Origin: an uncultured bacterium
Lineage (GTDB): Bacteria > Fermentibacterota > Fermentibacteria > Fermentibacterales > JCC-6
DNA length: 64,000 bases
NCBI GenBank assembly: GCA_964423505.1
Contig: CAYREX010000002.1
Location: 24,188-88,187, forward strand
Direction of reading: 5' to 3'
Below are positions 1-24,718 of the stretch, one piece after another. The stretch's first letter is position 1; each line of letters starts with the position of its first letter. The notes below the pieces were generated by a model. It ran no database searches and was not told the origin of the DNA. It saw nothing but the letters and a program-made list of their open reading frames with translations. The translations under genes and the position numbers were made by a program.

Positions 1-308
1 AGGTCGTCGTCGACGTCCTCTCCGCGAAGCTGCTCCACCAGGCGGAGCTGACCGGCGCCCGGTCGGTGCTGGTCGCCGGCGGCGTTGCGGCCAACGGGCT
101 CCTGAGGCGAAGGCTCGGGGAGATCTGCTCGGAGCGCGACCTCGAGCTCCATCTCCCGGGGCCGGGCATGTCCACCGACAACGCCATCATGGTGGGCAGG
201 GCCGCGGCGGCTCTCCTCACTCGGGAGCCGGGCGCCTGCTCGCCGGCCGACTCCAACGCGTTCGCGCGGTGGACCGGCGAGCGCCTGGAGGTCCTCGTTG
301 CCCGCTGA
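1..308 (+). CDS. tsaD: tRNA N6-adenosine threonylcarbamoyltransferase TsaD, C-terminal fragment (5' end outside window)
   Basis: Frame-3 translation from base 3 gives ...VLVAGGVAANGLLRRRL...HLPGPGMSTDNAIMVG..., the conserved C-terminus of Kae1/TsaD. Stop TGA at 306-308. Confidence 0.75.
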   Translation, partial: VVVDVLSAKLLHQAELTGARSVLVAGGVAANGLLRRRLGEICSERDLELHLPGPGMSTDNAIMVGRAAAALLTREPGACSPADSNAFARWTGERLEVLVAR

Positions 309-333
309 GCCACCGGGCGCAGCGGGTCTTTCG

Positions 334-708
334 GTGGGAATTGACATGATCGGCATCCGGCGCATGGAGCTGGCCCTCGCCAGGGAGGGGGGGCGATTCC
401 GCTCGAGGGTCTTCACACCCGCGGAGCTGGAGGCGGGGGACGACCCGGCCTTCCTGGCGTCCCGCTGGGCCTTCAAGGAGGCCCTGCTGAAGGCTCTGGG
501 CACCGGCCTCTCCGGAGGGGCGACCTGGCTGGACATGGAGCTGCCCCCGGGGGAGCGGCTCCCGGCACCGCGGGTGAGTGGAGCGACGGCAAAGATGCTG
601 GCCGGGCGCCGTATATTCGTGAGCGTGAGCGTGACCGCCGACAGGGCGGCCGCCCTCGTGGTGCTGGAAGGGAAGGACGAAGGGAGCGGAGCATGGTCTA
701 CTGGGTGA
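334..708 (+). CDS. acpS: holo-[acyl-carrier-protein] synthase (4'-phosphopantetheinyl transferase)
   Basis: Translation VGIDMIGIRRME...FTPAELE...FLASRWAFKEALLKALGTG matches the AcpS family. GTG at 334 is the likely start; TTG 298 and ATG 346 are alternatives. Confidence 0.7.
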   Translation: MGIDMIGIRRMELALAREGGRFRSRVFTPAELEAGDDPAFLASRWAFKEALLKALGTGLSGGATWLDMELPPGERLPAPRVSGATAKMLAGRRIFVSVSVTADRAAALVVLEGKDEGSGAWSTG

Positions 709-2240
709 CACCGGAGGAGATGGCCCTGATGGACCGGAGGACCATAGAGGCGGGCACGCCGGGCCATGTGCTGATGGAGCGCGCCGGGGTCGCCGTGGCC
801 GAAGCCGCTTCGAGGCTGGCCTCCCCGTCGGACGGGCCGGTCCACGTCTGGTGCGGGCGCGGCAACAACGGCGGCGACGGCTTCGTTGTCGCAAGGCACC
901 TTCTCCTCTCCGGCTACGACGTCCTGCTCGTGCTGGCCGCGGAGGAGGAGGTAGGGCTCTCCCCCGACTGCGCCCTGAACAGAGAGCGCTTCGTCGACTC
1001 GGGCGGTGACGTCCTCTACGCCGACAGCGCGGGCTCACTGCCCGGCGAGCCCGCCCTGACCGTGGACGCGCTACTGGGGACCGGCTTCCGGGGGAGGCTG
1101 CGGGGAACCGTAGCCGAGTGCCTCCGGGCGATGGCCCGGGGCGGGGGGAGGGTGCTCGCCGTGGACACGCCTACCGGGGTGGACTGCGGCACCGGCCAGG
1201 TCGACCCGCTCACCCTGCGGGCCACCGCAACGGTCACCTTCGCCGCGCCGAAGGTCGGCCTGCTGCTTCCCCCCGGCTGCGGGATGACCGGGGCGGTGCT
1301 GGTTGCCGACATCGGCATAGAGGTGGACGAGGACCCTTCCAGGAGGGCGTTGGACATGGCCGGGGCGAGGGCCCTCCTGCCGGAGAGACCGGCCGGCGCC
1401 CACAAGGGCACCTTCGGCAGGCTGCTGCTGGTCGGCGGCTCCGAGGCCATGACGGGGGCGCCGCAGCTCATGGCCATGGGAGCCCTCCGCTCCGGCGCCG
1501 GGCTGGTCACCCTCTGCGTGCCCGACGAGGCCTACCCGCTGGTGGCCGGGCGGGTACCGGAGACCCTGGGCGCCCGGTTCAGGAGGACCGACCCCGGCTC
1601 GCTGCCGGACCCCGGCGGCTTCGACGCAGCAGCCCTGGGGCCTGGCATGGGGAACGACTCCTGCACGGCGGCGACGGTAGGACACGTGCTCTCCGGCTGG
1701 AGCGTGCCGCTGGTGCTGGATGCCGACGGCCTGAACGCCCTCGAGGACCCGGTATCCCAGCTCTCCGCATACGGCGGTCCCCTGGTGCTCACCCCGCATC
1801 CGGGGGAGCTCTCCAGGCTGACCGGCTGCGACCCGTCGGACCAGCCGGGCTGCGTGGAGGCCGCCCTGCGGCTCTCCGCGGACACCGGGGCGGCGGTGCT
1901 CCTTAAGGGGAGGCCGACCCGGGTCCTCTCGCCCGACGGCTCGGTAACCCTTGTGGCGGCCGGAAACGACGGCCTCTCCACCGGTGGCAGCGGAGACGTG
2001 CTGACCGGGATGGTCTGCGGGCTCCTCGGGCAGGGTCTGCGGGCCGGAGATGCCGCCGCACTGGCCGCATGGGTACACGGGGCGGCCGCCGAGGCGGCCG
2101 CCTCCAGGACATCGACGAGGTCCCTCCTGCCCACGGAGGTCGCCGACTCCATTGGCGAGACCTTCCGGGCCGTCGAGCTCGGCAGGCCGGAGGGCCTCCT
2201 GACCTCCGGAGGGAGATGGACGCATGAGCTCGCGGACTGA
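693..2240 (+). CDS. nnr: bifunctional NAD(P)H-hydrate epimerase / ADP-dependent dehydratase (YjeF N+C domains)
   Basis: N-terminal YjeF_N motifs (VTPEEMALMDRRTIEAG...GRGNNGGDG). C-terminal carbohydrate-kinase-like domain (GTFGRLLLVGGSEAMTGAPQLMAMGALRSGAGLVTL ... GSGDVLTG). Confidence 0.8.
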   Translation: MVYWVTPEEMALMDRRTIEAGTPGHVLMERAGVAVAEAASRLASPSDGPVHVWCGRGNNGGDGFVVARHLLLSGYDVLLVLAAEEEVGLSPDCALNRERFVDSGGDVLYADSAGSLPGEPALTVDALLGTGFRGRLRGTVAECLRAMARGGGRVLAVDTPTGVDCGTGQVDPLTLRATATVTFAAPKVGLLLPPGCGMTGAVLVADIGIEVDEDPSRRALDMAGARALLPERPAGAHKGTFGRLLLVGGSEAMTGAPQLMAMGALRSGAGLVTLCVPDEAYPLVAGRVPETLGARFRRTDPGSLPDPGGFDAAALGPGMGNDSCTAATVGHVLSGWSVPLVLDADGLNALEDPVSQLSAYGGPLVLTPHPGELSRLTGCDPSDQPGCVEAALRLSADTGAAVLLKGRPTRVLSPDGSVTLVAAGNDGLSTGGSGDVLTGMVCGLLGQGLRAGDAAALAAWVHGAAAEAAASRTSTRSLLPTEVADSIGETFRAVELGRPEGLLTSGGRWTHELAD

Positions 2241-2793
2241 CATTGGCAGGGAAGAGGCGCTGGAGCTGCTGGAGGAGAACCTCGGGAACATCAACCTAAG
2301 GAGACACTGCCTGGCCACCGAGGCGGTCATGCGCCGGGTGGCTCCCCGCTCCGGCGGGGACCCGGAGCTCTGGGGGCTCACCGGCCTTCTGCACGACCTG
2401 GACTACGAGAGGACGTCCGACGACTTCTCCCGGCACGGCATGGTGACGGCCGAGATGCTGGAGGGCAGGCTCCCGGAGGAGGCCCTGAGGGCCATAAGGG
2501 CCCACAACGCGGAGCACACCGGGGTCCGGCGGGAGAGCGACCTGGAGCACCTGCTGGCCGCCGGCGAGTCGCTGACCGGGCTCATCGTGGCCACCGCCCT
2601 TGTCTACCCGGACAGGAAGATAGCCGGCGTGAAGCCGAAGTCGGTCCTGAAGAGGATGCGGATGAGCGCCTTCGCCCGCTCGGTGCCCAGGGAGACCATC
2701 AGGGAGTGCGAGCAGGCCGGCTGGGAGCTCCGCGACTTCGTCACGGAGGCGCTGGAGGCCATGAAGGGCATCTCGGACGACCTGGGCCTCTAG
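2224..2793 (+). CDS. HD-domain metal-dependent phosphohydrolase
   Basis: 189-aa ORF with an H...LLHDLDY HD motif. Overlaps the nnr 3' end by 17 nt. Confidence 0.55.
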   Translation: MSSRTDIGREEALELLEENLGNINLRRHCLATEAVMRRVAPRSGGDPELWGLTGLLHDLDYERTSDDFSRHGMVTAEMLEGRLPEEALRAIRAHNAEHTGVRRESDLEHLLAAGESLTGLIVATALVYPDRKIAGVKPKSVLKRMRMSAFARSVPRETIRECEQAGWELRDFVTEALEAMKGISDDLGL

Positions 2794-2861
2794 CCACGGC
2801 GCCCCGCCCGGGGGGGCACCGACAACGGCCGACGGGACCGAAGCAGCCGACGAGGGGACGC

Positions 2862-4076
2862 ATGGAGTTCTCCGACATCAGGTTCGTCGTAGACTTCGCG
2901 GTGATAGTCATCGCGGCGAAGGCCGCCGGCAGGCTCGTGCATCGCTTCCTCGGACAGCCCAGCGTCATAGGCGAGCTGCTGGTCGGGATGCTCATAGGAC
3001 CCTACGCACTGGGCTCTCTGGACATACCGGGCATCGGGCCGCTCTTCCTGGTGGACGACGAGGGGCTCTTCCGGGAGGGGCTGCTCCACGGGATAACCAT
3101 CGTGGGGATAGTCACCCTCCTCTTCTCGGCGGGACTCGAGACCGACCTCCGCAGGTTCCTCCGCTACGCTCCGAAGGGGCTGGCCATCGGCCTGGGGGGA
3201 GCAATTTTCGGCTTCGCATCCGGAGGCGCGGCGCTGCTACTCTGGGGGGGCGCCGCCGGTCTCGCCGACCCGAGGGTACTGGCTCTGGGGGCGATATCCG
3301 CGGCCACCTCCATATCGCTCACCGTACGGGTGCTCATCGACATGAGGAAGCTGGACTCGCCGGAGAGCGCGACCATCCTCTCGGCCGCGGTGATAGACGA
3401 CGTGATCGGCCTCGTGCTCCTCACCGTGGTTCTCGGGATGGCCGGGCATGGCGGCTCCGTCTCCATGGGGAGCGTTGGCCTGATAGTGCTGAAGGGCTTC
3501 GGCTTCTTCGCGCTGCTCCTTGCCGTCGGGCTCGCCCTGCAGGGACGCATCCTGGCCGGCATCAGGAGGCTCGGCGGCGACTCTGCCCAGGCCGCTGCCG
3601 CGCTGGCCCTCGGGATGCTGGCCGCCGGCCTTGCCGAGATGGCCGGCCTGGCGATGGTGGTCGGCGCCTACGTCATGGGCCTCGGCCTCTCGGGCTCCCG
3701 CACCGCGAGGCACATCTCCTCGAGACTGGAGACGGTGAGGGAGCTGCTGGTGCCGGTCTTCTTCTGCGTCACCGGCATGATGGTCGACTTCAGGACCTTC
3801 GGCTCTGTCATCCGGCTGGGGCTGCTCTATACCGTGCTCTGCGTCGTCGGGAAGTACCTCGGCTGCATGGTGCCGGCCAGGCTCTCCGGCTTCACGCCAA
3901 GGCAGTCGAAGGCCATCGGCGTGGGGATGCTACCCAGGCTCGAGGTGGGCCTGGTGGCGGCCAGCATGGCCATGGTCCGTGGCCTCATAGGCGGCCGGGA
4001 CATGGCCGTGGCCATGATAATGATAATCGTCTCTGCGGTGATAACCCCTCCGCTCCTGCAGAGGACGCTGCGCTAG
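2862..4076 (+). CDS. monovalent cation:proton antiporter, CPA2 (Kef/NapA-like) family
   Basis: ATG 2862 (MEFSDIRFVVDFAVIVIAAKAAGRL...) followed by 10-12 hydrophobic helices, with the typical GELLVGMLIGP motif. The longer N-terminal extension in the track is probably not translated. Confidence 0.7.
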   Translation: MEFSDIRFVVDFAVIVIAAKAAGRLVHRFLGQPSVIGELLVGMLIGPYALGSLDIPGIGPLFLVDDEGLFREGLLHGITIVGIVTLLFSAGLETDLRRFLRYAPKGLAIGLGGAIFGFASGGAALLLWGGAAGLADPRVLALGAISAATSISLTVRVLIDMRKLDSPESATILSAAVIDDVIGLVLLTVVLGMAGHGGSVSMGSVGLIVLKGFGFFALLLAVGLALQGRILAGIRRLGGDSAQAAAALALGMLAAGLAEMAGLAMVVGAYVMGLGLSGSRTARHISSRLETVRELLVPVFFCVTGMMVDFRTFGSVIRLGLLYTVLCVVGKYLGCMVPARLSGFTPRQSKAIGVGMLPRLEVGLVAASMAMVRGLIGGRDMAVAMIMIIVSAVITPPLLQRTLR

Positions 4077-5176
4077 CTCGACGGGGGAGGATCGATGGTC
4101 GCTGCGACCCGGATGCTCCCCGGCACCAGGGGGTCCGGACCCCTGACGGAGCCGGTGAGTATCCTCGCCACCTCCCTGCATCCGCCGTCGCAGCCGCCCA
4201 TATGCCTGCACGGCAGGCACTCCCGGGGCAGGACCCCCCCCCTCCTGTAGGCCATCCAGACATCGCTGGCGCGAAGGCCCTCCCGGTCCCCCGCCATTGC
4301 CAGCCTCAGCTCGGAGTGGTTGCACGCCCGCACCCACCCGGAGGGGCCGACCACGAAGAACCCGGTGGCCGCGCTGCACCTGGAGCCGAAGGAGAGGCTC
4401 GGGTAGTCCTCCTGCCGCGCCACGCAGGGGGGGATCTCCGTGCCCACCGAGCCCCTCCTGCCGGCGCGGGAGAGCACCTCCTCCGCCGTCTCCAGCATCC
4501 GCACCACCCGCCCTCGGTCCAGCTCCAGGCGCTCCCTGTTGGCCAGGCCCCTGCCGCCGGGCAGGAAGCGGTTGAGGAGGACACCGGAAGCCCCGGCGAG
4601 CAGCGCGGCGGCGATGGTCCTGTCCAGCTCATCGAGCCCCGGGGCGGTCACGGCGATGTTGGCGGTGACCCGCAGGCCCTTCGACGAGGCTCTCCGGATG
4701 GCTTCGAGGGCCCTGTCCGGATCGCCGCCCCCGGTAAGGGTCCGATAGGTGGAGAGGCCGGGGAGGCTGACGCTCAGGGCCGCCCCGACGGACGCCAGCA
4801 GCCCCGTCAGCCGGTTCGGCAGCGACCTGCCGCAGGTGAGCAGCGTCAGCTCCGGTGGGCCCTGGCGCCAGGATACTCCCGCCCCCTCCGGCTCCGGGTG
4901 CCTGGCCTCCGTGGAGGCGAGGTGACCGACTATCGCCTCCAGGTCCTCCCTGAGCGTCGGCTCGCCGCCGGTCAGGGCGAATCGGCTCACGCCGTCGTCC
5001 ACCAGTCCGTCCACCACGGCTGTCCACGCCCCGGTCCCCAGCTCAGGCAGCCGCGCGAAGCCGCCTCCCGGCCTCTCCCACGGGCAGGAGCAGAAGAGGC
5101 AGGAGTGGGGGCACCGGTAGGTCAGCTCGAGGACGGCCACTTGGGGCAGGTGGCCACCCGGCTCCCCCCGGGTCAC
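4073..5176 (-). CDS. radical SAM enzyme with C-terminal SPASM auxiliary-cluster domain (protein/peptide-modifying maturase candidate)
   Basis: CxxxCxxC (LTYRCPHSCLFCSCPW) plus FALTGGEPTL. C-terminal 7-Cys SPASM pattern (CVARQ...CSAATGFF...CNHSELRL...CLPCRHMGGCDGGC). GTG start at 5176 overlaps the upstream gene's stop as GTGA. Its stop shares a CTAG palindrome with the convergent antiporter stop. Confidence 0.7.
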   Translation of the reverse strand: MTRGEPGGHLPQVAVLELTYRCPHSCLFCSCPWERPGGGFARLPELGTGAWTAVVDGLVDDGVSRFALTGGEPTLREDLEAIVGHLASTEARHPEPEGAGVSWRQGPPELTLLTCGRSLPNRLTGLLASVGAALSVSLPGLSTYRTLTGGGDPDRALEAIRRASSKGLRVTANIAVTAPGLDELDRTIAAALLAGASGVLLNRFLPGGRGLANRERLELDRGRVVRMLETAEEVLSRAGRRGSVGTEIPPCVARQEDYPSLSFGSRCSAATGFFVVGPSGWVRACNHSELRLAMAGDREGLRASDVWMAYRRGGVLPRECLPCRHMGGCDGGCREVARILTGSVRGPDPLVPGSIRVAATIDPPPSS

Positions 5177-5802
5177 TCCCCGGCCGGGTCCCCGTCGAGT
5201 CCCAGCAGGCCGGCGAGCCTCTGGAGCTCCGACCTCAGAGGCATGTGCGCGTCGTTGTCGGTCACGTAGTAGAGCTCGCCGTCGATGAGCCCGGCGAGCA
5301 TCCTGAGCTCGGAGACGGTGACGTCGCTGCGGTGCTCGGCGCCGTCCTCCCAGGTTACCAGGAGGTCTATGCCCCGGTCCGCGGAATCGCCGCCGCAGCT
5401 GCTGCAGAGACCGGACTCGTCCAGTACGAAGGAGGCGTCCGTCAGCTCGTCCATGGCGGCGACGAGCCTCCTCGCCTCCGGCAGCTCCCTCTCGAGCCAG
5501 GCGAGCTCCCAGTCGCCGCCGAACAGGGTGGTGTCGCCGCATGCCGGACAGACGTGCTGGACCACGTCGGGGACTGCTATCGGCTCGTAGCACATGGCCC
5601 CCATCACCGGCTCCGGCTCCTCCGATGAGCCCACCCTCTCGAGGAGCGCCTCCACGTCGTCCCGGGTGAGACCCTTCATGTACCTGGCGGTCATGGACTT
5701 GGGGACGTGACGGTGACCGCCGCGGAGTGCGCCGCCCGAGCGCAGAGAGCCGGCCGCGAGAACTGCGCCGGCCACCACCAGCGCAAGGATGACGTACTGC
5801 AT
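5173..5802 (-). CDS. secreted/membrane-anchored hypothetical protein with two CxxCGD motifs
   Basis: ATG 5802 preceded by an AGGGAGG RBS. N-terminal signal/TM (MQYVILALVVAGAVLAAGSL). Motifs CPACGDTTLFGGD and CSSCGGDSADRGID. Translationally coupled to the radical SAM gene. Confidence 0.55.
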   Translation of the reverse strand: MQYVILALVVAGAVLAAGSLRSGGALRGGHRHVPKSMTARYMKGLTRDDVEALLERVGSSEEPEPVMGAMCYEPIAVPDVVQHVCPACGDTTLFGGDWELAWLERELPEARRLVAAMDELTDASFVLDESGLCSSCGGDSADRGIDLLVTWEDGAEHRSDVTVSELRMLAGLIDGELYYVTDNDAHMPLRSELQRLAGLLGLDGDPAGE

Positions 5803-5854: not shown

Positions 5855-7027
5855 TCAGTCCAGCAGCACCACCGGCGCCGACAGGCGCCGCCCCAGGGCC
5901 TCCATCACCACCACGTAGACCCCGGGAGGGGCCTCCCCCTCCCACTCGAAAGCGCTCCGGCCAGCCGGCAGGGCGGCATCGTGAAGGAGCTCCAGGAGCC
6001 TGCCGCGGAGGTCGTAGACCGCCAGCTCCACCCGGCCGGGCTCCTCGAGTCTGACTACGAGGGAGACGGCCCCCGTGGCCGGGCTCGGCGAGGGGGGCGA
6101 GAGCAACGTCCCGGAAGGGTTGCCGGTCTCCCCCGCGCTCTCGTACTCCTCCCACCGGAAGGTGCTCCTGCTGCTGTTCACCCAGCTCCCTCCGGACCGG
6201 GTCCTCGCCACGACCATGTTGTTGTTGCCGTGGACGTCGTAGGAGTACTGGTAGTGCATCCAGTCGACCCAGCCGTCCTCCCAGGTCTCGTAGAGCACCT
6301 CGGAGAGCCGCCCGCCCGAGTAGGTGTAGCTGCACAGCAGGGAGCTCTCCCATGCGGAGCCGGACCAGTCGCTCAGGAGGGACTCGCTGAGGAGGTCGCC
6401 CTGGTAGGTGTAGGTGGTGAGGGAGTGGTTCACCCATGAGCTGCCGGACCAGCTCCGGCCGAGCGTCTCCGAGAGCAGCTCCCCCCGGTAGTCGTAGGTG
6501 TACAGCCAGGAGTTCTCCCAGGAGTCGGCGGCGCTCCAGGTCCGGACGAGGGACTCCGTCATGTTGCCCGACTGGTACTCGTAGGTGGTCAGCGTGCTGT
6601 TGACCCAGCCGCCGGACCACGTCTGAGTGAGAACCTGCCGCGGCTCCTCCCCGCCTTCGTAGGTGTAGGTGCTCAGCTGGCGGTCCTGCCAGGACGAGCC
6701 GGAGCGCTGCTGGTAGAGCATGGTCTCCAGCCTCTCCTGGGAGTCGTATCCGTAGACGTAACGGTAGGAGCTCTCCCAGGAGCTGCCGTCCCAGGTCTCG
6801 TAGAGGACCTCCGCGATTCGGTCGTCGTCCTCTCCGACGTAGGTGTACGTCGCCCTGGTGGTGTAGTCCCAGGAGCCGCCGGACCAGCTCTCGTAGGTGG
6901 CCTCGGTCATCCGGTAGGCGCTCCCCGCAGGCGGCTGCGGCGCCGGATACCCCTCCGGCGGAGGCGAGCCGGACGCCGGGCAGGGCGCGGTCAGACCGAG
7001 GCAGAGAGCCATCAGCAGAGGGTGCAT
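5855..7027 (-). CDS. secreted tandem-repeat protein (approx. 9x ~20-aa W-S-G-S-S-W...Y-T-Y repeats) with T9SS/FlgD-Ig-like C-terminal sorting domain
   Basis: ATG 7027 with GAGAGGAG RBS. Signal peptide MHPLLMALCLGLTAPC. Repeats such as ESWSGGSWDYTTRATYTY, ETWDGSSWESSYRYVYGY, RSWSGSSWVNHSLTTYTYQG. C-terminus VELAVYDLRGRLL...GVYVVVMEALGRRLSAPVVLLD resembles the Por-secretion CTD. Confidence 0.6.
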   Translation of the reverse strand: MHPLLMALCLGLTAPCPASGSPPPEGYPAPQPPAGSAYRMTEATYESWSGGSWDYTTRATYTYVGEDDDRIAEVLYETWDGSSWESSYRYVYGYDSQERLETMLYQQRSGSSWQDRQLSTYTYEGGEEPRQVLTQTWSGGWVNSTLTTYEYQSGNMTESLVRTWSAADSWENSWLYTYDYRGELLSETLGRSWSGSSWVNHSLTTYTYQGDLLSESLLSDWSGSAWESSLLCSYTYSGGRLSEVLYETWEDGWVDWMHYQYSYDVHGNNNMVVARTRSGGSWVNSSRSTFRWEEYESAGETGNPSGTLLSPPSPSPATGAVSLVVRLEEPGRVELAVYDLRGRLLELLHDAALPAGRSAFEWEGEAPPGVYVVVMEALGRRLSAPVVLLD

Positions 7028-7058
7028 CGGGGCTCCTCTCGCGGCCGGGCGGTGCGGG

Positions 7059-7634
7059 TCAGAGCCGGCGGCCCTCCTCGAAGGCCCGTGCGTTGACCTC
7101 CAGCGCCTTCGGGGGGACACGCTCCTCCAGGGCCTTGCTCCAGTTCTCCTCCTCTATGGGGAGGTGGGGGGAGATGGCGCCGAGGAGCACCACGTTGACC
7201 ACCTTCATGTTGCCGAGCTCCTCCGCCTTCTCCAGGGCGGGGATGGTCCTGCAGGGGATGCCCCTCTCCTCTATGATGGCATCAACGTCGGGATAGACGG
7301 CGGAGCCGGTCTGGACGGTCATCGGGTTTATCTCCAGGTCGCAGGCGACTATCCTGCCCTCCGGCGCCAGGTAGGGGGCCCACCTGAGGGCCTCCATCTT
7401 CTCCATGGCGAGTATCATGTCGGCGGCGCCCTTCTCCACCAGGGGGCTGTAGACCTTTTCCCCGAAGCGCACGTGGCTGGAGACGCTCCCCCCCCTCTGG
7501 GCCATCCCGTGCACCTCGCTCTTCTTGACATCGAATCCCTGGTGCATGGCCGCCGAGCAGAGCACCTCGCTTGCGAGCAGGATTCCCTGCCCGCCGGTGC
7601 CGCAGATTATGACGTTGAAGGCCTCCTCCATCAT
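7059..7634 (-). CDS. iorB: indolepyruvate ferredoxin oxidoreductase subunit beta
   Basis: MMEEAFNVIICGTGGQGILLASEVL...; 191 aa. ATG overlaps the iorA stop (ATGA). Confidence 0.85.
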   Translation of the reverse strand: MMEEAFNVIICGTGGQGILLASEVLCSAAMHQGFDVKKSEVHGMAQRGGSVSSHVRFGEKVYSPLVEKGAADMILAMEKMEALRWAPYLAPEGRIVACDLEINPMTVQTGSAVYPDVDAIIEERGIPCRTIPALEKAEELGNMKVVNVVLLGAISPHLPIEEENWSKALEERVPPKALEVNARAFEEGRRL

Positions 7635-12925: not shown

Positions 12926-13456
12926 TTGCAGTCCAGACTGGTAGACTACGCCCTGGTAGCCCTCGTCATAGTGGTGATAGTGGGGCTGTTCCGGCTCTCG
13001 CGCTACCTGCTCAACACGCTGCTCGACAGGATATCGGAGAGGGATGGCGGCCTCACCGCCGACCGGGTGCTCAGGCTGGGGCTGCGCGTGCTCCTGGTCG
13101 GGCTTCTCGGTCTGCCCTTCGTTACGTCGCTCCTCGCCTTCGCGGACCCGCTCAGGCTGCCCGGGGGCATGCCGCTCCACCTCGCAATGGTGGCGGTGAG
13201 CGTGGTGCTCTTCAGCATCGCCGAGGACAGCTTCAGGATATTCAGGGGTTATCCCAGGGACGAGAGGTGGACCGTAGGCAGGCACATGGCGGCCGCCGCC
13301 CCCTTCCTCGTCGGTTTCTGGCTCGTCGGCTGTCTCTTCCTCAGCCCGCTCTTCTACTCGGGGCTGACCGTCATAATCGCCCTCTTCTACCTCTTCGCCC
13401 TCTCATGCAGGCCCGGGCCCTCCGAGACCGGGATGGAGGAAGACCCTGCCGACTGA
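12926..13456 (+). CDS. integral membrane protein, hypothetical
   Basis: Hydrophobic ORF in the frame of track ORF 12455. TTG 12926 is the first plausible start after the upstream stop; the start is uncertain. Confidence 0.4.
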   Translation: MQSRLVDYALVALVIVVIVGLFRLSRYLLNTLLDRISERDGGLTADRVLRLGLRVLLVGLLGLPFVTSLLAFADPLRLPGGMPLHLAMVAVSVVLFSIAEDSFRIFRGYPRDERWTVGRHMAAAAPFLVGFWLVGCLFLSPLFYSGLTVIIALFYLFALSCRPGPSETGMEEDPAD

Positions 13457-13469
13457 CCGTCCGGTCAAG

Positions 13470-16265
13470 GTGCTCCATGTGATAACGAAGCTCGCCGTAG
13501 GCGGCGCTCAGCTTAACACCCTCATCTCCACCCGCGACATAGACGCCATGGGCTGCCCCTCGACAATACTGACCGGCCCAGAGCGGCCGCCCGAGGGCGA
13601 CCTCTACCGCCTGGCGGACGAATGGGGGCTGCGGGTCCTCACCGCCCGCCACCTGACCCGGAACATCGCGCCGGTGCGGGACCTGCTCGCCTTCTTCGAG
13701 ATACGCCGGGAGATAACCAGGGGCGGCTACGACGTGGTACACACCCACGGCTCCAAGGCCAGGTTCCTCGGCAGGCTGGCCGCGGCCACATGTCACGGCG
13801 TGAAGATAGTACAGACCGCCCACGGGTGGCCCTTCTACGACTCGATGAACCCCTTCCTCCAGTGGCTCTACGTGACCCTGGAGAAGATCGGCTTCGGTCT
13901 GGCCCACGCCAACATCGCGGTCAGCCCGATGGACCGGGACAAGGCCATGCGGCACGGCATCGGCCGTTACGACGACTACAGGATAATCCGCAGCGGGGTG
14001 GAGCTGGAGGGGTTCCGGGCGCTCAGGGGCTCCCGCTCCCGCTCCCGGAGGCTCCTGGACATCCCGGAGGACCGGGAGGTGGTCGGCTCGGTGATGCGGT
14101 TCTGCCCGGAGAAGGCGCCGGACCTGTTCGTGAAGGTGGCCGAGAGGGTCCTGGCGGAGCGTCCCGGCGTCCTTTTCCTCCTGGTCGGGGACGGGCCGCT
14201 CTGGCGGCAGACCCGCCACCTGATACGCGCCCGGGGCCTGAAGGAGGACATCGTCCTCCTCGGAAGCAGGGACGACGTAAGGGACATACTGCCCGCCTTC
14301 GACCTCTTCCTCATCACCTCCCGCACCGAGGGCCTCCCCAGGGCGCTGCTCGAGACCCTCGCCGCCGGCGTGCCGGTTGTCGCCACCGACGTCGGCGGGA
14401 TACCGGAGCTGGTCGGCGGCGGCAGGAACGGCATCCTCTGCCCGGAGGGCGATGTCAGGTGCCTGACCGGGGGCGTCCTCCGGCTGCTCGCCGAGCCGGA
14501 GAGGAGGCCTGCCCTCACGGTAGGCGCCGACGAGGACCTCGAGCCTTTCTCGGCCCGCCGGATGGTGGAGCAGCTCCACGAGCTCTACGACAGGATGGTG
14601 TACCCGCCCATGCACGTGGTGCTCCTCTGCGACGACGAGCCCTTCAACATACCGCAGACGGTGACAAGGATAATCCGGAACAGGCCCTTCCTCCGATACA
14701 CGCTGGTCTCCCTGGCCGGCCACGGGTCCATGCGGCATACCGGCACCAACATCAGGCGGTACATGGCCCTCTACGGCCCGCTGGGGTTCGTCCGGAAGCT
14801 TGCCGGCTACGCTCTCCGCAGGGCCGCTGCCGCGCTCAGGCTGCCCACGCGCACCCCGCACTCGCTCAGGAGGGCGGCCAGGCTGACCGGCGCGGGCTTC
14901 GAGCGCATCGAACGACTGAACTCGAAGGCCGGCCTCGAGCGGCTGCGTCAGCTCTCTCCGGACGTCATCATCTCCATAGCCTGCCCGCAGATACTGAAGA
15001 AGAGGGTCCTCGAGCTCCCTCCTCTCGGCGCCTGGAACGTCCATTCCGCCATGCTCCCCAGGAACCGCGGCATGCTGCCCACCTTCTGGGCGCTCCTGAA
15101 GGGCGACAGACCGGGGGTATCCCTCCACAGGATGACGCGGAGGCTTGACGACGGGGAGATTCTCCTCCAGCGGGAGGTGGATGCCGACATGGAGACGGTC
15201 TCCCTCGAGGACCTCCTCTCCGGGACGAAGGAGCTGGCCTCGGAGCTGGTGGTGGAGGGGCTGGACAGGATAGAGCGGGGCGAGGTCGAGCTGCTCCCCA
15301 ACCCGGCCGAGGAGGCAACCTCCAACACCTTCCCGACCAGGGAAGACGTGAGGGTCTTCCTGGACAGGGGAGGGCAGATATCCGGGACCAGGCACCCGAG
15401 GCCGAAGCTGGCCCTCTCCTTCGACGTGGAGGAGTGGTTCCACACCTCCGCCGCCAGGAGGTGGTTCCCGCCGGAGCAGTGGGACGGAATCGAGCCCAGG
15501 GTCCCGGTGGTGATGGACAGCATACTGGAGCTGCTCGAGAGGCAGAGGGCCAGGGCCACCTTCTTCGTCCTCGGGTGGATACTGGAGCGCCACCCGGACC
15601 TGGTCCGACGCATAAGCGACTGCGGTCACGAGATAGCCTCCCACGGCTACAGCCACGTTGAGATAACGCAGCTGAGCAGGGAGCAGTTCGAGAGCGACCT
15701 GGACAGGTTCCGGAGGCTGGTGGACAGGCTCTCCATACCTCCGCCCAGGGGCTTCCGCGCACCGAGCTTCTCGATGGTCTCCGAGACGAAGTGGGCCGTG
15801 GACGCCATAGTCTCGAACGGTTACAGCTACGACAGCAGCGTCTACCCCATGTTCAAGCACCGCTACGGTATGCCAGACGCCCCGCAGGAGCCCTTCATGC
15901 TGCAGGGCGGCCGCTCGTCAATACTCGAACTCCCCCTGGCGTCCATCTCGATGATGGGGGTCAAGGTCCCGGTGGCCGGTGGCGCCTACATGAGGTTCTA
16001 CCCCGGCATCCTCCACAGGAAGTTCCTGGCCGACATAGCGAAAACCGGAAGAGTTCCTGTAATTTATCTGCATCCATGGGAGATAGATTCGGTAAATATG
16101 TCGAGCAGGATGAACATGCTCCAGAGGTTCAGGCAGCACCACAACTCCGGGAGGACCATGGTTCGGAGGCTCGGCAGGATACTCAGGGTCTACAGGACCA
16201 TCACCCTCTCGGAGCTTGCGGAGGACGTGGAGAGGGGCGAGCTGCAGGAGCTCTCGGTCCTGTAG
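13470..16265 (+). CDS. trifunctional fusion: GT4 glycosyltransferase + formyltransferase (Fmt/ArnA-N-like) + NodB-type polysaccharide deacetylase (PEP-CTERM-locus subfamily-like)
   Basis: One uninterrupted 931-aa ORF. Residues 1-370 carry GT4 motifs (ITSRTEGLPRALLETLAAGVPVVATDVGGIPELV). Residues 375-620 are formyl-transferase-like (WNVHSAMLPRNRGMLPTFWALLKGD). Residues 625-931 are NodB-like (LSFDVEEWFHTS...HGYSHVEIT...YLHPWE). Confidence 0.7.
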   Translation: MLHVITKLAVGGAQLNTLISTRDIDAMGCPSTILTGPERPPEGDLYRLADEWGLRVLTARHLTRNIAPVRDLLAFFEIRREITRGGYDVVHTHGSKARFLGRLAAATCHGVKIVQTAHGWPFYDSMNPFLQWLYVTLEKIGFGLAHANIAVSPMDRDKAMRHGIGRYDDYRIIRSGVELEGFRALRGSRSRSRRLLDIPEDREVVGSVMRFCPEKAPDLFVKVAERVLAERPGVLFLLVGDGPLWRQTRHLIRARGLKEDIVLLGSRDDVRDILPAFDLFLITSRTEGLPRALLETLAAGVPVVATDVGGIPELVGGGRNGILCPEGDVRCLTGGVLRLLAEPERRPALTVGADEDLEPFSARRMVEQLHELYDRMVYPPMHVVLLCDDEPFNIPQTVTRIIRNRPFLRYTLVSLAGHGSMRHTGTNIRRYMALYGPLGFVRKLAGYALRRAAAALRLPTRTPHSLRRAARLTGAGFERIERLNSKAGLERLRQLSPDVIISIACPQILKKRVLELPPLGAWNVHSAMLPRNRGMLPTFWALLKGDRPGVSLHRMTRRLDDGEILLQREVDADMETVSLEDLLSGTKELASELVVEGLDRIERGEVELLPNPAEEATSNTFPTREDVRVFLDRGGQISGTRHPRPKLALSFDVEEWFHTSAARRWFPPEQWDGIEPRVPVVMDSILELLERQRARATFFVLGWILERHPDLVRRISDCGHEIASHGYSHVEITQLSREQFESDLDRFRRLVDRLSIPPPRGFRAPSFSMVSETKWAVDAIVSNGYSYDSSVYPMFKHRYGMPDAPQEPFMLQGGRSSILELPLASISMMGVKVPVAGGAYMRFYPGILHRKFLADIAKTGRVPVIYLHPWEIDSVNMSSRMNMLQRFRQHHNSGRTMVRRLGRILRVYRTITLSELAEDVERGELQELSVL

Positions 16266-16553: not shown

Positions 16554-17423
16554 TCAACTTCCCCTTCCACTCCCGCCGATTATCTCCAGTATCCTGTCCA
16601 GCTCCCGGAGGTCGTGGAAGGATATCTCTATCCTGCCGGAACCACTGCGGGAGACCACCCTCACCCTTGTGCCCAGGTGTCTCTGCAGCCGCTCCTCGAG
16701 GCTCTTCACCTCGGCGGTGGATTCGCCGGTGCCTGTCCTCGGCCTGCGCACCGGACCGGAGGTCTCGCTCCTGACCAGCTCCTCCACCTTCCTCACGGAG
16801 AGGCCGCGGCGGGCCGCCCGGAGGGCCAGACGCTCCATCCTCTCCCCGTCTTCCATGGCCAGCAGAGCCCTGCCGTGCCCCATCTGAAGCCTCCCCTCCC
16901 GCAGCAGGTGCTGCACCTTCTCCGGGAGATCGAGCAGACGGATGAAGTTGGCGACGGCGGATCGGCTCATCCCCATCCTCGAGGCTATCGCCTCCTGGGA
17001 GAGACCGAACCTCTCCCTCAGGGAATGGAAGGCCTCGGCCTTCTCCATCGGCCCGAGGTCCCTTCGCTGGAGGTTCTCGACGAGTGCCATGGCGAGCATC
17101 TGCTCGTCGTCGGCGTCTCGTACGACGGCCGGGACCTCCCTCAGCCCGACCTCGCGTGCGGCCCTGAGCCTCCGCTCTCCGGCTATCAGCTGGAACCGGT
17201 CACCACTCCTCCTGAGAACCAGCGGCTGCACGATGCCCTGCTCCCTCACCGACGCAGCCAGCGCCGATATCTCCACCGGGTCCCACTCCCTCCTCGGCTG
17301 GAAGGGGTTGGGGTCGATGAGCTCTACCGGGACGCTGCCCTTCTCGGTCCCGTCATCGCTCCCGACGCCGGGGAAGAGCTCGTCCAGGCCACGGCCCAGC
17401 GCCTTCCTCCTCCTGCCGCTCAT
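16554..17423 (-). CDS. parB: chromosome partitioning protein ParB (Spo0J)
   Basis: [11 protein letters not shown], the [13 protein letters not shown] box, and an HTH region. ATG 17423 overlaps the parA stop (ATGA). Confidence 0.9.
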
Positions 17424-18172
17424 CGCTCCAGCACCTCCCTCGCAAGGTTCAGATAGCCGAGCGCGCCGGCGCACCTGGCATCGTACATGAGAACCGGCCT
17501 GCCGTAGCTCGGGGCCTCCCCCAGCCTCACGTTCCTGGGGATCCTCGTCCTGAACAGCAGGTCGCCCAGCTTGCTCCCCACCTCTCCGGCAACCTCGTTG
17601 CTCAGCTTCAGCCTCGAGTCGTACATGGTCAGGAGCACGCCTCCGAAGACCAGCCCCGGGTTCCACCTGCTCCTGACGTACCTCATGGTGGTCATCAGGT
17701 GCGAGAGGCCCTCCAGGGCGTAGTACTCGCACTGGAGGGTGACGAGGACCTCGGTCGCCGCCACGAGGCCGTTCAGGGTCAGGAGCCCCAGTGAGGGCGG
17801 GCAGTCGATCAGCACGAAGTCATAGCCCGATGCCTGCTCCTCCAGCGCCTCGGCCAGGAGGAACTCCCTCTGCTCGACCTTGGCCAGCTCTATCTCCAGG
17901 CCGGCCAGCTCCCGGGAGCCGGGGACCGCCCAGAGACCCTCTACGCATGTCTCCCTCACCACATCGGACAGCTCTGCCCTGCCGAGGAGCAGCTCGTATA
18001 CGCTCTCACCCTCTCCGGAGAGGCCGATACCGCTGGTGGCGTTCGCCTGGGGGTCGATGTCCACCAGCAGGACGTTGCGCTCGTACATGGCAAGGCTCGC
18101 CGCGAGGTTTATGGCGGTAGTGGTCTTCCCCACGCCGCCCTTCTGGTTGGCTATCGCGATGGTTCGGGTCAT
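17420..18172 (-). CDS. parA: chromosome partitioning ATPase ParA (Soj)
   Basis: [28 protein letters not shown]; deviant Walker A. Confidence 0.9.
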
Positions 18173-18819
18173 CCGGGCTCCAACCCTTCCTCGTCGGCTC
18201 TGTCCTCGTGGATATGGGGCAAAGGCGGACCGTGACAGCACCGATACTGCACCAACGCCCCGCTACGGTCAAGCGGAGGGACGGGCAGCGACAGGATGAC
18301 GGCCGGCGCCGGTTCCTCCAGGGGCGGAGATGGGAGCCGCAGGGTGAGCGTGAGCGCCGCCTCCCCGCGGCCCCGGGAGGGTATCTCCTCCAAGAGCCTC
18401 TCCGGCGGAGCGACCGCCCTTGCGGCGAACTGGCGGCGCGTGCCGAGGAATGCGGCCGACTCCAGCCTCTCCCCGACGACCTCCACTCCCTCCAGCCCCA
18501 TCTCCCTGGCCGCCAGCTCCAGGAAGAGACGTCTCTTGCGCCTCGGCTCGAGAAGCAGCATCGGAAAGCCCATGGAGGCGAGCACCAGCCCGGGGAAGCC
18601 GGCGCCCGAGCCCACGTCCACCGTCTCCACCCCCGGGTCGAGCAGCAGCGCGTACGCCGCGGACTCGAGGAAGTGGCGCGGCCAGAGCCTGCCCATCTCC
18701 GAGGGGCCGACCAGGTTCACCCTCCCCGAGCGCTCCTCCAGCAGGGCGGCCATCGTCTCCATCCGCTCCAGGGTCCCCTCTGCCAGGTCGAGCCCCAGGG
18801 CGGCGGCGTCCGCCATCAT
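18169..18819 (-). CDS. rsmG: 16S rRNA (guanine527-N7)-methyltransferase RsmG (GidB)
   Basis: ...[22 protein letters not shown]...[15 protein letters not shown]...; start uncertain (ATG 18819 or GTG 18861). Confidence 0.8.
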
Positions 18820-18857
18820 CCTCTCCCGCGGCGGGAGGGGGGCGTGGCCCCGGTGTT

Positions 18858-20669
18858 TCACGTGGAACGTCCTCCACCGGACAGCCAGGCCAGGAGGTTG
18901 CTCACGTCGGATGGCCTCACGCCGGGCAGCCGTGCGGCCTGGCCCATGTTCTCCGGTCTCTCCCTCTCCAGGACCATCCTCGCCTCGGTGCAGATGCTGT
19001 CGATGGACATGTAGCTGACCACGCCGCGCAGGCTCACCCCCGAAGCCCTCCGCATCCGCTCCACCCTGGCCCTGGCCCTGCTCACGTAGGGCGCGTAGCG
19101 CACGTCCAGCATAACGCTGCGGAGAGCCTCCTCCGGCGCATTCCGCAGCGACTCCGCCCGCCTGAGCTCCGACGTCGACGTCCCCGGCCGCCTGCAGAGA
19201 ACCACCCCCGGAACTCCATCTATCCTGACCTCCTCCACGGCCCTCCTCAACCTCTCCGCCTCATCGGCCATCGACCTGGCCTCATCCAGCTCGCGGCCCG
19301 TCAGGGTCCCCAGCCTCTCGGCCAGGGACAGCATCCGCCTACGTGCGTTGTCCGGCCTCAGCCAGAGCCTGTTCTCCGCCCTGGCCGAGAAGAGCCTGTA
19401 GGGCTCCGTGGCCTGACCACTGCAAAGGTCGTCCACAAGCACACCCAGGTAGCTCTCCGCCCGGTCCGGCTCCACCGGATCGAGCCCCAGGGCGCACCTG
19501 GCGGCGTTCGCCCCGGCCAGGAGGCCGAGGGCCGCAGCCTCCTCGTACCCGGACGTGCCGCATACCTGGCCTGCTGCGAAGACGTTCTCCGTCCCGGCGA
19601 GCCTCAGGGTCGCCTCGAGCTCCCCGCCGCTCATGCATGCGTACTCAACCGCGTAACCGTACCTGGAGACGACCGCCCTCTCCAGGCCGGGTACAGTGCG
19701 GAGCATCTCCTCCTGCGCCCTCCTCGGGAGGCTGGTGGAGAGCCCGCTCACGTAGGAGAGCCTGGACCGCCTGCCCATGGGCTCGACGTATACCGGGTGC
19801 GAGTCCCTGTCCGGGAACCTCACGACCTTGTCCTCGAAGCTCGGGCAGTACCTCGGCCCCGTTCCCTCTATCCGCCCTCCGAGGAGCGGCGAGGATCCGA
19901 TGTGCCTCATCGCGGCCTCGGACGTGGACCGACTCGTCCTTGTCCTGAAACACGGCATCCCCTCCTCCGGGAGGCCCGAGTCCGCGGAGAATGAGAACGC
20001 CCCGTGCTCCTCCTGGACTTCCATCCTCTCCCGGTCGATGCTCCCGCTCAGGACCCTCGGGGACGTGCCGGTCTTGAAGCGTTCCACGTGGAACATCCTG
20101 CGGGCGAGGTCCTCGAGCAGCGCCCCTGACGCCACGTCACCCGAGCGTCCGCCCCTCCAGACCTCGTCTCCCCTGAAGAGCCTCCCGCCGAGGAACGTGC
20201 CGGCGGCCAGCACCACGGCGTCCGCCCTCACCTCGCCGAGCCTCCTGCAGAGGACGCCCCCCGGCCTCTCCGTGGCGCCGGCAAGCGCGAGCACCTCGTC
20301 CTCGACCACCTCCACCCCGGCCCTCGCCAGGGCCCTCCCCTGCAGCCGGGCGTAGAGCGCCGCGTCCACCTGCGCCCTCGGGCCCCAGACGGCGGGCCCC
20401 TTCCTCCTGTTCAGCATCCTGAACTGCAGCATCGCCCCGTCGGTCGCCGCCGGCATGGCGCCGCCGAGACCCCGGAGCTCCAGCACCAGGGTCCCCTTCG
20501 CTATGCCTCCTATGGAGGGGTTGCAGGAGAGCTCGCCGATGCCGCTCCTCCTGCATGTCACAACGGTAGCGTCGGCCCCGAGCCTCCGCGCGGCCAGGGC
20601 GGCCTCTATCCCGGCATGTCCGCCGCCTACCACGAGCACCCTTACCGCGCGGGGAGCCCTGCCCGTCAT
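18858..20669 (-). CDS. mnmG: tRNA uridine 5-carboxymethylaminomethyl modification enzyme MnmG (GidA)
   Basis: VLVVGGGHAGIEAALAARRLGA...; the full-length GidA family. ATG 20669 overlaps the mnmE stop (ATGA). Confidence 0.9.
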   Translation of the reverse strand: MTGRAPRAVRVLVVGGGHAGIEAALAARRLGADATVVTCRRSGIGELSCNPSIGGIAKGTLVLELRGLGGAMPAATDGAMLQFRMLNRRKGPAVWGPRAQVDAALYARLQGRALARAGVEVVEDEVLALAGATERPGGVLCRRLGEVRADAVVLAAGTFLGGRLFRGDEVWRGGRSGDVASGALLEDLARRMFHVERFKTGTSPRVLSGSIDRERMEVQEEHGAFSFSADSGLPEEGMPCFRTRTSRSTSEAAMRHIGSSPLLGGRIEGTGPRYCPSFEDKVVRFPDRDSHPVYVEPMGRRSRLSYVSGLSTSLPRRAQEEMLRTVPGLERAVVSRYGYAVEYACMSGGELEATLRLAGTENVFAAGQVCGTSGYEEAAALGLLAGANAARCALGLDPVEPDRAESYLGVLVDDLCSGQATEPYRLFSARAENRLWLRPDNARRRMLSLAERLGTLTGRELDEARSMADEAERLRRAVEEVRIDGVPGVVLCRRPGTSTSELRRAESLRNAPEEALRSVMLDVRYAPYVSRARARVERMRRASGVSLRGVVSYMSIDSICTEARMVLERERPENMGQAARLPGVRPSDVSNLLAWLSGGGRST

Positions 20670-21946
20670 TTCCCCGCGCACATCCTGGCCAGGGCGCCCT
20701 CGACCGCTCGCTCCAGGCAGCCGCTCCCGTCCGTCATGTTGCGGAGAAGCTCCAGCGCCTCACCGGTCATCTGTGCGGAAAGCGCCCAGTCACCGTCGCC
20801 CATCGCTCCCGCGGCATCCTCAAGACCCTCTTCGACCGCCTGCAGCAGGGTCTCCCCTCCGCGCAGCCGGACCAGCTCCGCGACAGACCGGCCGAGCCGG
20901 GCCACGCCCTCTCCGGTGGTTCCGCTCACCCCGATGGCAGCATCCGGCGCGGGGCTCTGGTCGCACCTGCTAGCCACGCGAACCACGCGGCCGGCGGCAT
21001 CAAGGAGGGCGGGAGGCGGCTCCAACGATGCCCCGGGGGACATCCATACAACCACGTCCGACTCACGGAGACCCTCCAGGAAGAGGGCGAAGGCCTCGGC
21101 GTCCAGGCCGCTGCCGCCGTATCCGGCGGTGTCCAGCAGCTCCACCTCCAGGCCTCCGAGTGAAGCGGGAGCGCTCCTGCCGTCCCTCGTCGTGCCCGGC
21201 TGCTCCGAGACCAGGGCCATCCGCCTCCCGACCAGCCTGTTGAAGAGTGTCGACTTCCCCGCGTTGAACGGTCCGGCCAGGACCAACCTGGGCGAGCATG
21301 CGATGGACGCTATCCGGTCTCCCAGCGCCCCGGCCCGGGCGGCCAGGCCGGAGAGCCGCTCCATCAGCTCCTCCCCCCCGAGTCCGCCCCCGTGCCTCTC
21401 GCCCAGCTCTATGGACCCAGCCAGGTCCTCGTGGAGCGCCTCCAGGTCCCCTTCGAGCCTGCGCGCCTCCTCGCCCGGGGGAGGGCCGGACCACTCGCCG
21501 CGCCAGGCATCTGCCAGCTCCAGCACGTCCATGGAGGACATCCTGCCGGAGATCCACGCTCGCCTGGTGAGCTCACCCGGCTCCGCTGGCAGGGCGCCCT
21601 CGGACTCGAGGAGCCTCGCCAGCCTGTCCAGGCGCTCCTGCACGCCGTGGCAGATGAGCTCCACCATCTCCTCGCCGGTGTAGCTCCTCCCCTCCGGCCA
21701 TGAGAGCGCGACCACCCCGTCCACCGGACCTTCGGCGTCGTGCACGCGGCCGACCGCCCTCCTCATCCCGGCCAGCCTGCCGGCGGGCAGACGCATGAGG
21801 CGCTCCACCATCCGCGGGGAGCCGCTGCCGGCAAGCCTCATCACCGCCAGGGCGGAGCTGCCCCTGGGGGTCGCCTGGGCGTAGACCACCACCCGGTGGT
21901 CACGGCCGGCGTCAGAACTGCTGCCCGGAGAGGCTTGACCGGTCAT
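20666..21946 (-). CDS. mnmE: tRNA modification GTPase MnmE (TrmE)
   Basis: G-domain GPFNAGKSTLFNRL...DTAGY; C-terminal ...CAGK. Confidence 0.85.
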   Translation of the reverse strand: MTGQASPGSSSDAGRDHRVVVYAQATPRGSSALAVMRLAGSGSPRMVERLMRLPAGRLAGMRRAVGRVHDAEGPVDGVVALSWPEGRSYTGEEMVELICHGVQERLDRLARLLESEGALPAEPGELTRRAWISGRMSSMDVLELADAWRGEWSGPPPGEEARRLEGDLEALHEDLAGSIELGERHGGGLGGEELMERLSGLAARAGALGDRIASIACSPRLVLAGPFNAGKSTLFNRLVGRRMALVSEQPGTTRDGRSAPASLGGLEVELLDTAGYGGSGLDAEAFALFLEGLRESDVVVWMSPGASLEPPPALLDAAGRVVRVASRCDQSPAPDAAIGVSGTTGEGVARLGRSVAELVRLRGGETLLQAVEEGLEDAAGAMGDGDWALSAQMTGEALELLRNMTDGSGCLERAVEGALARMCAGK

Positions 21947-21956
21947 GAGGAGGCCG

Positions 21957-23672: not shown

Positions 23673-23893
23673 CTCCTATCCTTCCATTCGTCCGGTACGG
23701 GGTCGTATCCGCCGCGCCTGAAGGGATGGCATCTCAGGACCCTCTTCAGGGAGATGAGCCCGCCCCTGAGCAGCCCGAACCTCTCGATGGCGACCCGCGC
23801 ATATCTGCTGCATGTCGGCGTGTATATGCAGCTGCTCGGGAAGAGCGGCGATATCGCCCTCGAGTAGGCCCTTATGACGATGAGGACGAACCT
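23669..23893 (-). CDS. yidD: membrane protein insertion efficiency factor YidD-like (no canonical start codon in frame)
   Basis: Minus-strand translation ...[66 protein letters not shown] carries the YidD signature. Its TGA overlaps the yidC ATG (ATGA). The open frame (23669-23962) has no ATG, GTG or TTG, so the 5' end is unresolved. Confidence 0.5.
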
Positions 23894-23912
23894 CGCCGCG
23901 ACGCCCGTTCCA

Positions 23913-24293
23913 CTATCGGAGCTCGTTCTCCATCCTCTCCAGGAGTCCGAGGAAATCGCTCCTCAGCCCCTCCCAGGTGCTCTCCTCCACGCGCCCGACC
24001 GGGAACACCACCACGTCGGCGCCCACCCTGTACCGGTTCTCCATGGCAAGGCTTCTCAGCCTCCGCCTGAACCTGTTCCGGTGGACGGCGGAGCCGCATT
24101 TCGCGGACAAAGAAAACCCCAGGCGAATCATGCCCAGGGAGTTCTTCCTGTAGGAGGCCCGCAAGTCGGAGCCTCTGAACTTCCTGCCGCTCCTGAGCAC
24201 GCGTCTGAACCGCCACGCGCCGCTCAGGGCGAGCCTGCCGGCGTCATCCCCCTCAGGGGACGAGACGCTTGCGGCCCTTCCGGCGCCTGGCAT
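23913..24293 (-). CDS. rnpA: ribonuclease P protein component
   Basis: ...[19 protein letters not shown]... (RNR-x-KRxxR motif). If ATG 24293 is used, the gene overlaps the rpmH 3' end by 41 nt. Confidence 0.75.
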
Positions 24294-24387
24294 TCAGAAT
24301 CTTCCGGCCGCTCCTGGTGGCCATCCGGGCCCTGAAGCCGTGTCTCCTGGCCCGAGATTTCCTGCTGGGCTGGTATGTCCTCTTCAT
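24253..24387 (-). CDS. rpmH: 50S ribosomal protein L34
   Basis: [42 protein letters not shown]. Confidence 0.9.
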
Positions 24388-24640: not shown

Positions 24641-24659
24641 TGTGGATAACCGTGTGGAG
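24641..24659. promoter_or_regulatory. DnaA box(es) in the rpmH-dnaA intergenic region
   Basis: Perfect TGTGGATAA (complement of TTATCCACA) at 24641-24649, followed by a 1-mismatch copy TGTGGAGAA at 24653-24661. Confidence 0.5.
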
Positions 24660-24718
24660 AAGAAACACACCTCCCTACGGGACTTAGGTTTATACGCACG
24701 GACGGCAGCGGTGCCCGA

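Follow-up and report, generated by a model that had tools for sequence, protein, structure and literature searches.

The stretch of 64,000 nucleotides that was analysed (hereafter the window) carries, on its minus strand, a real gene for an exported protein of 390 amino acids (aa) that consists of nine beta-hairpin repeats followed by a weak-scoring type IX secretion system (T9SS) tail. This protein, which is diverged but otherwise ordinary, falls within a very large family that is already catalogued. Its repeats belong to a described but functionally uncharacterised family, being a long-period variant of the YD/Rhs hairpin whose unit is catalogued in Pfam as DUF3836. Its tail is homologous, on family-level evidence, to the T9SS type A C-terminal sorting domains (CTDs), despite scores that fall below the thresholds. 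The identity of the protein is well supported, while its ligand and its role are guesses. The initial annotation of this DNA had described a leader, nine repeats and a Por/FlgD-Ig-like tail, and this architecture is borne out by the hydrophobic N-terminus and by the nine units that the repeat HMM detects.

The gene and its product

The minus-strand ORF 5855-7027 encodes 390 aa and ends with the stop codon 5855-5857. The gene upstream, which is POR/iorB-like, stops at 7059-7061, and the ATG (7025-7027) follows 31 nt later. The longest possible ORF starts at a GTG at 7120 and overlaps this upstream gene. The identical 390-aa product was called independently on a Logan contig of 9.9 kb. Since codon-position GC is that of a coding sequence (GC3 0.92, GC2 0.57) and full-length homologues are found at 41-48% identity, 5855-7027 is a real gene. 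A sigma-70-like promoter and an intrinsic terminator were sought at this gene and neither was found. The features of the gene and of its product are the following:

5855..7027, minus strand: complete coding sequence (ORF list, GC3 versus GC2, Logan contig call, full-length homologues)
7033..7040, minus strand: Shine-Dalgarno-like GAGAGGAG, 5 nt 5' of the ATG (sequence read directly)
6968..7027, minus strand: putative Sec signal peptide, aa 1-~20, MHPLLMALCLGLTAPCPASG (hydrophobic N-terminus, AlphaFold2 helix, homologue leaders)
6917..6967, minus strand: Pro-rich low-confidence linker, aa 21-37 (AlphaFold2 pLDDT 30-39)
6140..6916, minus strand: repeat region, aa 38-296, modelled as 18 long beta strands that form nine hairpins in one strongly curved antiparallel sheet
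6803..6895, minus strand: repeat 1, aa 45-75, YESWSGGSWDYTTRATYTYVGEDDDRIAEVL
6716..6802, minus strand: repeat 2, aa 76-104, YETWDGSSWESSYRYVYGYDSQERLETML
6629..6715, minus strand: repeat 3, aa 105-133, YQQRSGSSWQDRQLSTYTYEGGEEPRQVL
6548..6628, minus strand: repeat 4, aa 134-160, TQTWSGGWVNSTLTTYEYQSGNMTESL
6461..6547, minus strand: repeat 5, aa 161-189, VRTWSAADSWENSWLYTYDYRGELLSETL
6377..6460, minus strand: repeat 6, aa 190-217, 28 aa
6293..6376, minus strand: repeat 7, aa 218-245, LSDWSGSAWESSLLCSYTYSGGRLSEVL
6209..6292, minus strand: repeat 8, aa 246-273, YETWEDGWVDWMHYQYSYDVHGNNNMVV
6140..6208, minus strand: repeat 9, truncated last hairpin, aa 274-296, ARTRSGGSWVNSSRSTFRWEEYE
6089..6139, minus strand: flexible linker, aa 297-313 (AlphaFold2 pLDDT <50 for aa 297-305)
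5858..6088, minus strand: diverged T9SS type A C-terminal sorting domain, aa 314-390, modelled as a beta-sandwich of six strands

The N-terminus, MHPLLMALCLGL, is hydrophobic and is modelled as a low-confidence helix (aa 3-10, with a pLDDT below 50 over aa 1-28). The putative signal peptide is short, has no basic n-region and lacks a canonical lipobox. Homologues of the protein have classical leaders in which MKK precedes a hydrophobic stretch.

A long-period variant of the YD/Rhs hairpin

The W-x-G-x-x-W cores of the nine repeats start at aa 48, 79, 108, 137, 164, 193, 221, 249 and 277. The period is therefore 27-31 aa (family mode 29) and not about 20 aa, as the initial annotation had it; the strings of about 20 aa that it listed are only the conserved cores, and the last unit is truncated. 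The units share a pairwise mean identity of 36%, and the Y-x-Y-D-x-x-G-x-L signature is recognisable in repeats 2, 5 and 8 (YGYDSQERL, YDYRGELL and YSYDVHGNN) and degraded elsewhere. The repeats are far above chance: with an HMM built from 176 other proteins, leaving out the 390-aa protein and its four closest relatives, the repeat region scores 124 bits, against -15 on average and at most 5 for 300 shuffles, and exactly nine units are detected. TRF finds no tandem repeat in the DNA of the gene, which shows that the array is old. Furthermore, three close homologues (P0002, P0003 and P0004) align with the protein repeat for repeat. Taken with the lack of DNA-level repetition, this shows an old, positionally fixed array that has undergone no recent expansion.

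When the whole library was searched by HMMER with only the repeat region (aa 40-300) as query, 3374 cluster representatives were retrieved at E<=1e-3 and 1176 at the stricter E<=1e-10, most of them 400-550 aa long. The repeat unit is present in all 181 members that were fetched; the median copy number is nine and the period is most often 29 aa. Its family consensus is YQTWNGSAWVNSSRYTYTYDANGNLTEV, which can be written as the motif Q-x-W-x-G-x-x-W-V-N-x-x-R-x-T-Y-T-Y-D-x-N-G-N-L-T. The most conserved positions are W8 (97%), W3 (95%) and Y18 (89%), followed by Q1 and N10 (76% each) and D19 (64%). Of the two halves of the unit, YTYDxNGNL corresponds to the YD signature and W-x-G-x-x-W adds a hairpin turn to it.

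The initial annotation could place these repeats in no known family. On this point it has to be corrected, since 46 of the 93 top relatives match DUF3836 (PF12930; best E 2.1e-16) and 39 match RHS_repeat (PF05593; best E 2.8e-13), and the structure model superposes on both. It had also proposed that a match to a described family at E<1e-5 would speak against its view. Such matches are reached at family level and not by the 390-aa protein alone, which matches neither DUF3836 at E<=10 nor RHS_repeat and has no Pfam or NCBIfam family above threshold. The close homologues fall on both sides of the DUF3836 gathering cut-off of 25 bits: P0004, which is 43-49% identical to the 390-aa protein, scores 31.5 bits, P0003 22.3 and P0002 17.1. 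Moreover, the family profile matches the DUF3836 crystal structures by sequence (4r8o at 3.8e-6 and 4r03 at 7e-5), with the same succession of motifs in the 4r8o alignment as in the repeat family.

Sequence searches of Pfam, NCBIfam and the PDB for which the 390-aa protein alone was the query also returned a phage terminase and DinI, which were sub-threshold or spurious, and a galectin-1 segment (E 4e-4), which is a short compositional match to repeat 8/9 and was likewise discarded as spurious. Two of the 93 repeat-region relatives (P0038-P0130) carry a Dockerin_1 domain; hence, the repeat module also pairs with a different C-terminal module. No member of the repeat family has a known function; none of the papers in the literature collection searched mentions DUF3836 or PF12930, and the locus tags likewise led to nothing useful.

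Modelled structure of the passenger

The AlphaFold2 model, built with an alignment of 36 sequences, has a mean pLDDT of 88.5, with values mostly of 95-98 in the repeats. In this model, aa 38-294 form 18 long strands, two per repeat, aa 297-305 are disordered and aa 321-388 form a beta-sandwich with six strands modelled. A Foldseek search, for which the initial annotation had envisaged a beta-propeller or a beta-solenoid, points to an Rhs-type curved sheet of hairpins: the Rhs core 8qjc comes first (6.5e-8), followed by 4ghb, TcB/C (4igl) and teneurins. The model superposes on solved structures of DUF3836 and of Rhs proteins, the modelled repeats having the fold of 4R8O and 4R03 (TM 0.76 to 4r8o). 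Other fold matches include the Bacteroides 'porin-like' proteins 4ghb and 3tzg, as well as the 19-strand barrels of VDAC and Tom40, over 212-229 aligned residues. The passenger would thus correspond to about one turn of an Rhs-type spiral sheet, with a curvature close to that of an 18-19-strand barrel.

According to the model and the fold matches, two Trp flank each hairpin turn and the Y-x-Y lies at the opposite end of the strands. Strand alternation places W3, W8, Q1, N10, Y16, Y18 and the first-strand Leu on one face of the sheet, the opposite face being rich in Ser, Thr and Arg. The protein contains little Ala (2.7%), Ile (0.4%) or Phe (0.4%), and Ser, Thr and Glu are abundant.

A diverged type A sorting domain

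The tail covers about 75 aa (aa ~314-390), which is more than the 60 or so initially proposed. Its own scores are low: TIGR04183, the check that the initial annotation had suggested, gives 16.1 bits for a cut-off of 23 (E 0.0085), FlgD_ig gives 14 bits for a cut-off of 27, and PF18962 is not reported for the 390-aa protein at E<=10. The assignment to type A CTDs is drawn from the family. All three close homologues pass the TIGR04183 cut-off (P0004 33.4, P0003 27.7 and P0002 23.9 bits), and 87 of the 93 top relatives, although gathered with the repeat region alone, carry PF18962 (Por_Secre_tail). An HMM of the last 85 aa of 180 other family members gives 34.4 bits on the tail and matches no other ORF in the window. 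Furthermore, the family profile matches solved T9SS CTDs (8glj_D at 1e-10, 8glk_D at 6e-10, plus the mirolase and gingipain CTDs), and P314, P316, G342, G369 and Y371, at positions conserved in at least 90% of members, are all kept. The tail is thus identified as a type A CTD because of these homologues, relatives, profile matches and conserved positions. It has the Ig-like beta-sandwich of ~70-100 aa with the P-x-P, G and G-x-Y positions that defines these domains, and its modelled fold matches that of solved CTDs. Therefore, the suggestion of a T9SS-like tail holds at family level, through homologues, PF18962-bearing relatives and fold, and fails on the protein's own scores, which are below the CTD thresholds.

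Host lineage, secretion machinery and genomic context

The best named matches of the GyrB encoded in the window are proteins of Candidatus Aegiribacteria and of Fermentibacteraceae/Fermentibacteria, with 70-72% identity. The organism is therefore placed in Fermentibacterota, within the FCB superphylum, in agreement with the FCB or candidate-phylum affiliation initially guessed from the tail. None of the T9SS core genes (SprA/Sov, PorV, PorU, GldK/L/M/N) was recognised within the 64 kb window, and a search of the literature for T9SS in Fermentibacteria found nothing useful. The T9SS is described as a system of the FCB superphylum (PMC11205867).

Searching GTDB representatives for related loci with a four-sequence alignment yielded three loci only, all from Bacteroidota MAGs. 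The neighbours of P0004, P0003, P0014, P0009 and P0037 differ from those in the window and among themselves, which rules out conserved synteny. In the neighbourhoods compared, no conserved partner gene was found near the family members and no toxin or immunity pair was seen beside them. Family members elsewhere are frequently located beside other CTD-bearing genes, and in one case a SprA gene is found at a distance of 3.5 kb. For instance, the contig of P0004 (L004) encodes a 1274-aa C25 (gingipain-like) peptidase at 78-3902 and several further proteins ending in FlgD_ig/Por_Secre_tail, including BNR/sortilin-like and NosD/beta-helix proteins. This C25 peptidase was considered as a PorU candidate and rejected (21.8 bits for an NCBIfam cut-off of 450).

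Directly downstream of the repeat-protein gene (region 4073-5802, minus strand) lies a gene whose product, 209 aa long, has two CxxC pairs and a hydrophobic segment at its N-terminal end and matches no Pfam or NCBIfam family. All that this product has in common with that of a 209-aa gene close to P0003 is CxxC zinc-ribbon motifs. The next gene encodes a radical SAM/SPASM-type enzyme (367 aa according to the gene call on the Logan contig), whose best, weak matches are PqqE and peptide-maturase models. These two genes could form a small maturase cassette.

The window also spans the chromosomal origin region (16554-32158), with parB/parA, mnmG, mnmE, yidC and rnpA on the minus strand and dnaA (24650-26050), dnaN, gyrB (27724-29646) and gyrA on the plus strand. 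The minimum of the cumulative GC skew, at ~24-26 kb, is consistent with an oriC located there. Directly 3' of gyrA, an ORF of ~1100-1200 aa (32200-35802, plus strand) has no Pfam match at E<=1e-3. The gene at 13377-16262 (plus strand) encodes a fusion of 962 aa that joins glycosyltransferase family 4/1, formyltransferase, polysaccharide deacetylase and DUF3473 domains and is an unusual multi-domain enzyme for cell-envelope sugar modification. A polysaccharide biosynthesis cluster (54222-63879) comprises a sugar transferase and several glycosyltransferases and includes a B12-binding radical SAM enzyme (56757-58205). A complete V/A-type ATPase operon occupies 37683-46472 (plus strand; subunits I, K, E, C, F, A, B and D recognised by eye). 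It is followed by an ORF (46508-47551, plus strand) whose weak matches to IS200-like Y1 transposase and HTH domains are at or below the Pfam cut-offs; this ORF may represent a degraded mobile element lying between that operon and the gene that comes after it.

Proposed role and alternative explanations

The explanation that we favour, and that we hold to be rather likely, is an exported, non-enzymatic Fermentibacterota protein made of nine YD-type hairpins and a type A CTD, which would use Sec and then the T9SS and have a binding or scaffold role. The short N-terminal signal peptide would mediate the crossing of the inner membrane by Sec. The passenger (aa 38-296, nine hairpin repeats of ~29 aa) would fold in the periplasm as a continuous curved antiparallel sheet of 18 strands. 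Judging from homology, the last ~75 aa, i.e. the diverged type A CTD, would then hand the folded passenger to the type IX translocon, after which it may be released or anchored at the cell surface. Since no catalytic domain, toxin domain, Rhs plug or Rhs core was found in the 390-aa protein, our guess is that the passenger would most likely be a surface or extracellular module for binding or scaffolding, for example of glycans or other surface polymers.

The tail could also be merely an FlgD/Ig-like beta-sandwich that does not work as a T9SS signal, the protein being then periplasmic or exported by another route. The scores below every curated CTD cut-off (16.1 vs 23 and 14 vs 27 bits), the lack of recognised T9SS core genes in the window and the two relatives in which the repeats are combined with a dockerin domain would all fit this explanation. 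We nevertheless regard it as unlikely, given that close homologues pass TIGR04183, that 87 of 93 relatives carry PF18962, that the conserved CTD residues are kept, that the fold matches solved CTDs and that the host lineage lies within the FCB group.

The other alternatives concern the repeats. An integral, porin-like beta-barrel of the outer membrane appears very improbable. Strand alternation puts the conserved polar Q1 and N10 on the Trp face; polar residues on this aromatic face, together with a marked scarcity of aliphatic residues and abundant S, T and E, disfavour a lipid-exposed barrel. Besides, the solved DUF3836 proteins and their Bacteroides 'porin-like' relatives crystallised as soluble proteins, and a C-terminal T9SS domain is not a known feature of substrates of BAM. 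That the protein would be all or part of an Rhs/YD polymorphic-toxin shell is suggested by the top Foldseek matches, which are T6SS Rhs cores and TcB/C, and by the 39 of 93 relatives that match the RHS_repeat HMM. However, the 390-aa protein itself gives no RHS_repeat match, its period is 29 aa against about 20, and it has only nine hairpins within 390 aa. A closed shell with an N-terminal plug, an Rhs core/aspartyl autoprotease motif and a C-terminal toxin is not what is found here: neither a core nor a plug is present, an autoproteolysis motif and a toxin domain are likewise missing, and the nine hairpins run straight into a linker and then into a sorting domain, which forms the C-terminal end, with no other domain found. 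A toxin shell is therefore extremely improbable, and an exported binding or scaffold protein remains the explanation that we retain.

Significance

The 390-aa protein is by itself of little consequence, being one diverged copy of a common domain combination. Two outcomes are of modest value. The first is that DUF3836 of gut Bacteroidales, RHS_repeat and the 29-aa W-G-W/Y-x-Y-D unit are one repeat type. Proteins built from this repeat type and ending in a T9SS tail number in the thousands across the FCB group, and no function is known for any of them. To our knowledge, secretion by the T9SS has not yet been demonstrated in the phylum Fermentibacterota. The second outcome is that the present analysis documents, at the level of sequence, a putative T9SS-type cargo in this phylum, with a tail that lies under the curated thresholds. 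Hence, standard HMM cut-offs would under-count T9SS cargo in high-GC candidate phyla such as Fermentibacterota.

Comparison with known systems

The closest described proteins are those of DUF3836 (PF12930), with the solved structures 4R8O (BVU_1206) and 4R03 (BDI_3222) and the related 3MSW (BF3112), all from gut Bacteroidales. The solved DUF3836 proteins are stand-alone proteins of about 100-140 aa with 3-4 hairpins, whereas the protein described here has nine hairpins (257 aa) joined to a T9SS domain. Their hosts are Bacteroidota, while the present host belongs to Fermentibacterota and the protein is under the Pfam threshold. The Bacteroides 'porin-like' proteins 4GHB (BACUNI_01323) and 3TZG (BVU_2266) resemble the passenger in fold, with no match detected at sequence level, and we know of no function for them either.

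The YD/Rhs repeats (PF05593) of Rhs T6SS effectors, TcB/TcC cocoons and teneurin YD shells have a period of about 20 aa, against 29 aa here, because of the added W-x-G-x-x-W hairpin turn. Compared with these shells, the passenger amounts to about one turn of sheet, without plug, core, protease motif or encapsulated toxin. Moreover, its export is predicted to depend on a T9SS tail, whereas theirs proceeds by T6SS or Tc. In comparison with the T9SS type A CTDs (TIGR04183/PF18962), such as those of the gingipain RgpB and mirolase, the copy found here scores below the curated cut-offs and reads SPSP in place of the usual PNP motif. The protein is therefore a diverged copy of a common and catalogued combination, in which DUF3836/YD-type repeats are followed by a T9SS type A tail.
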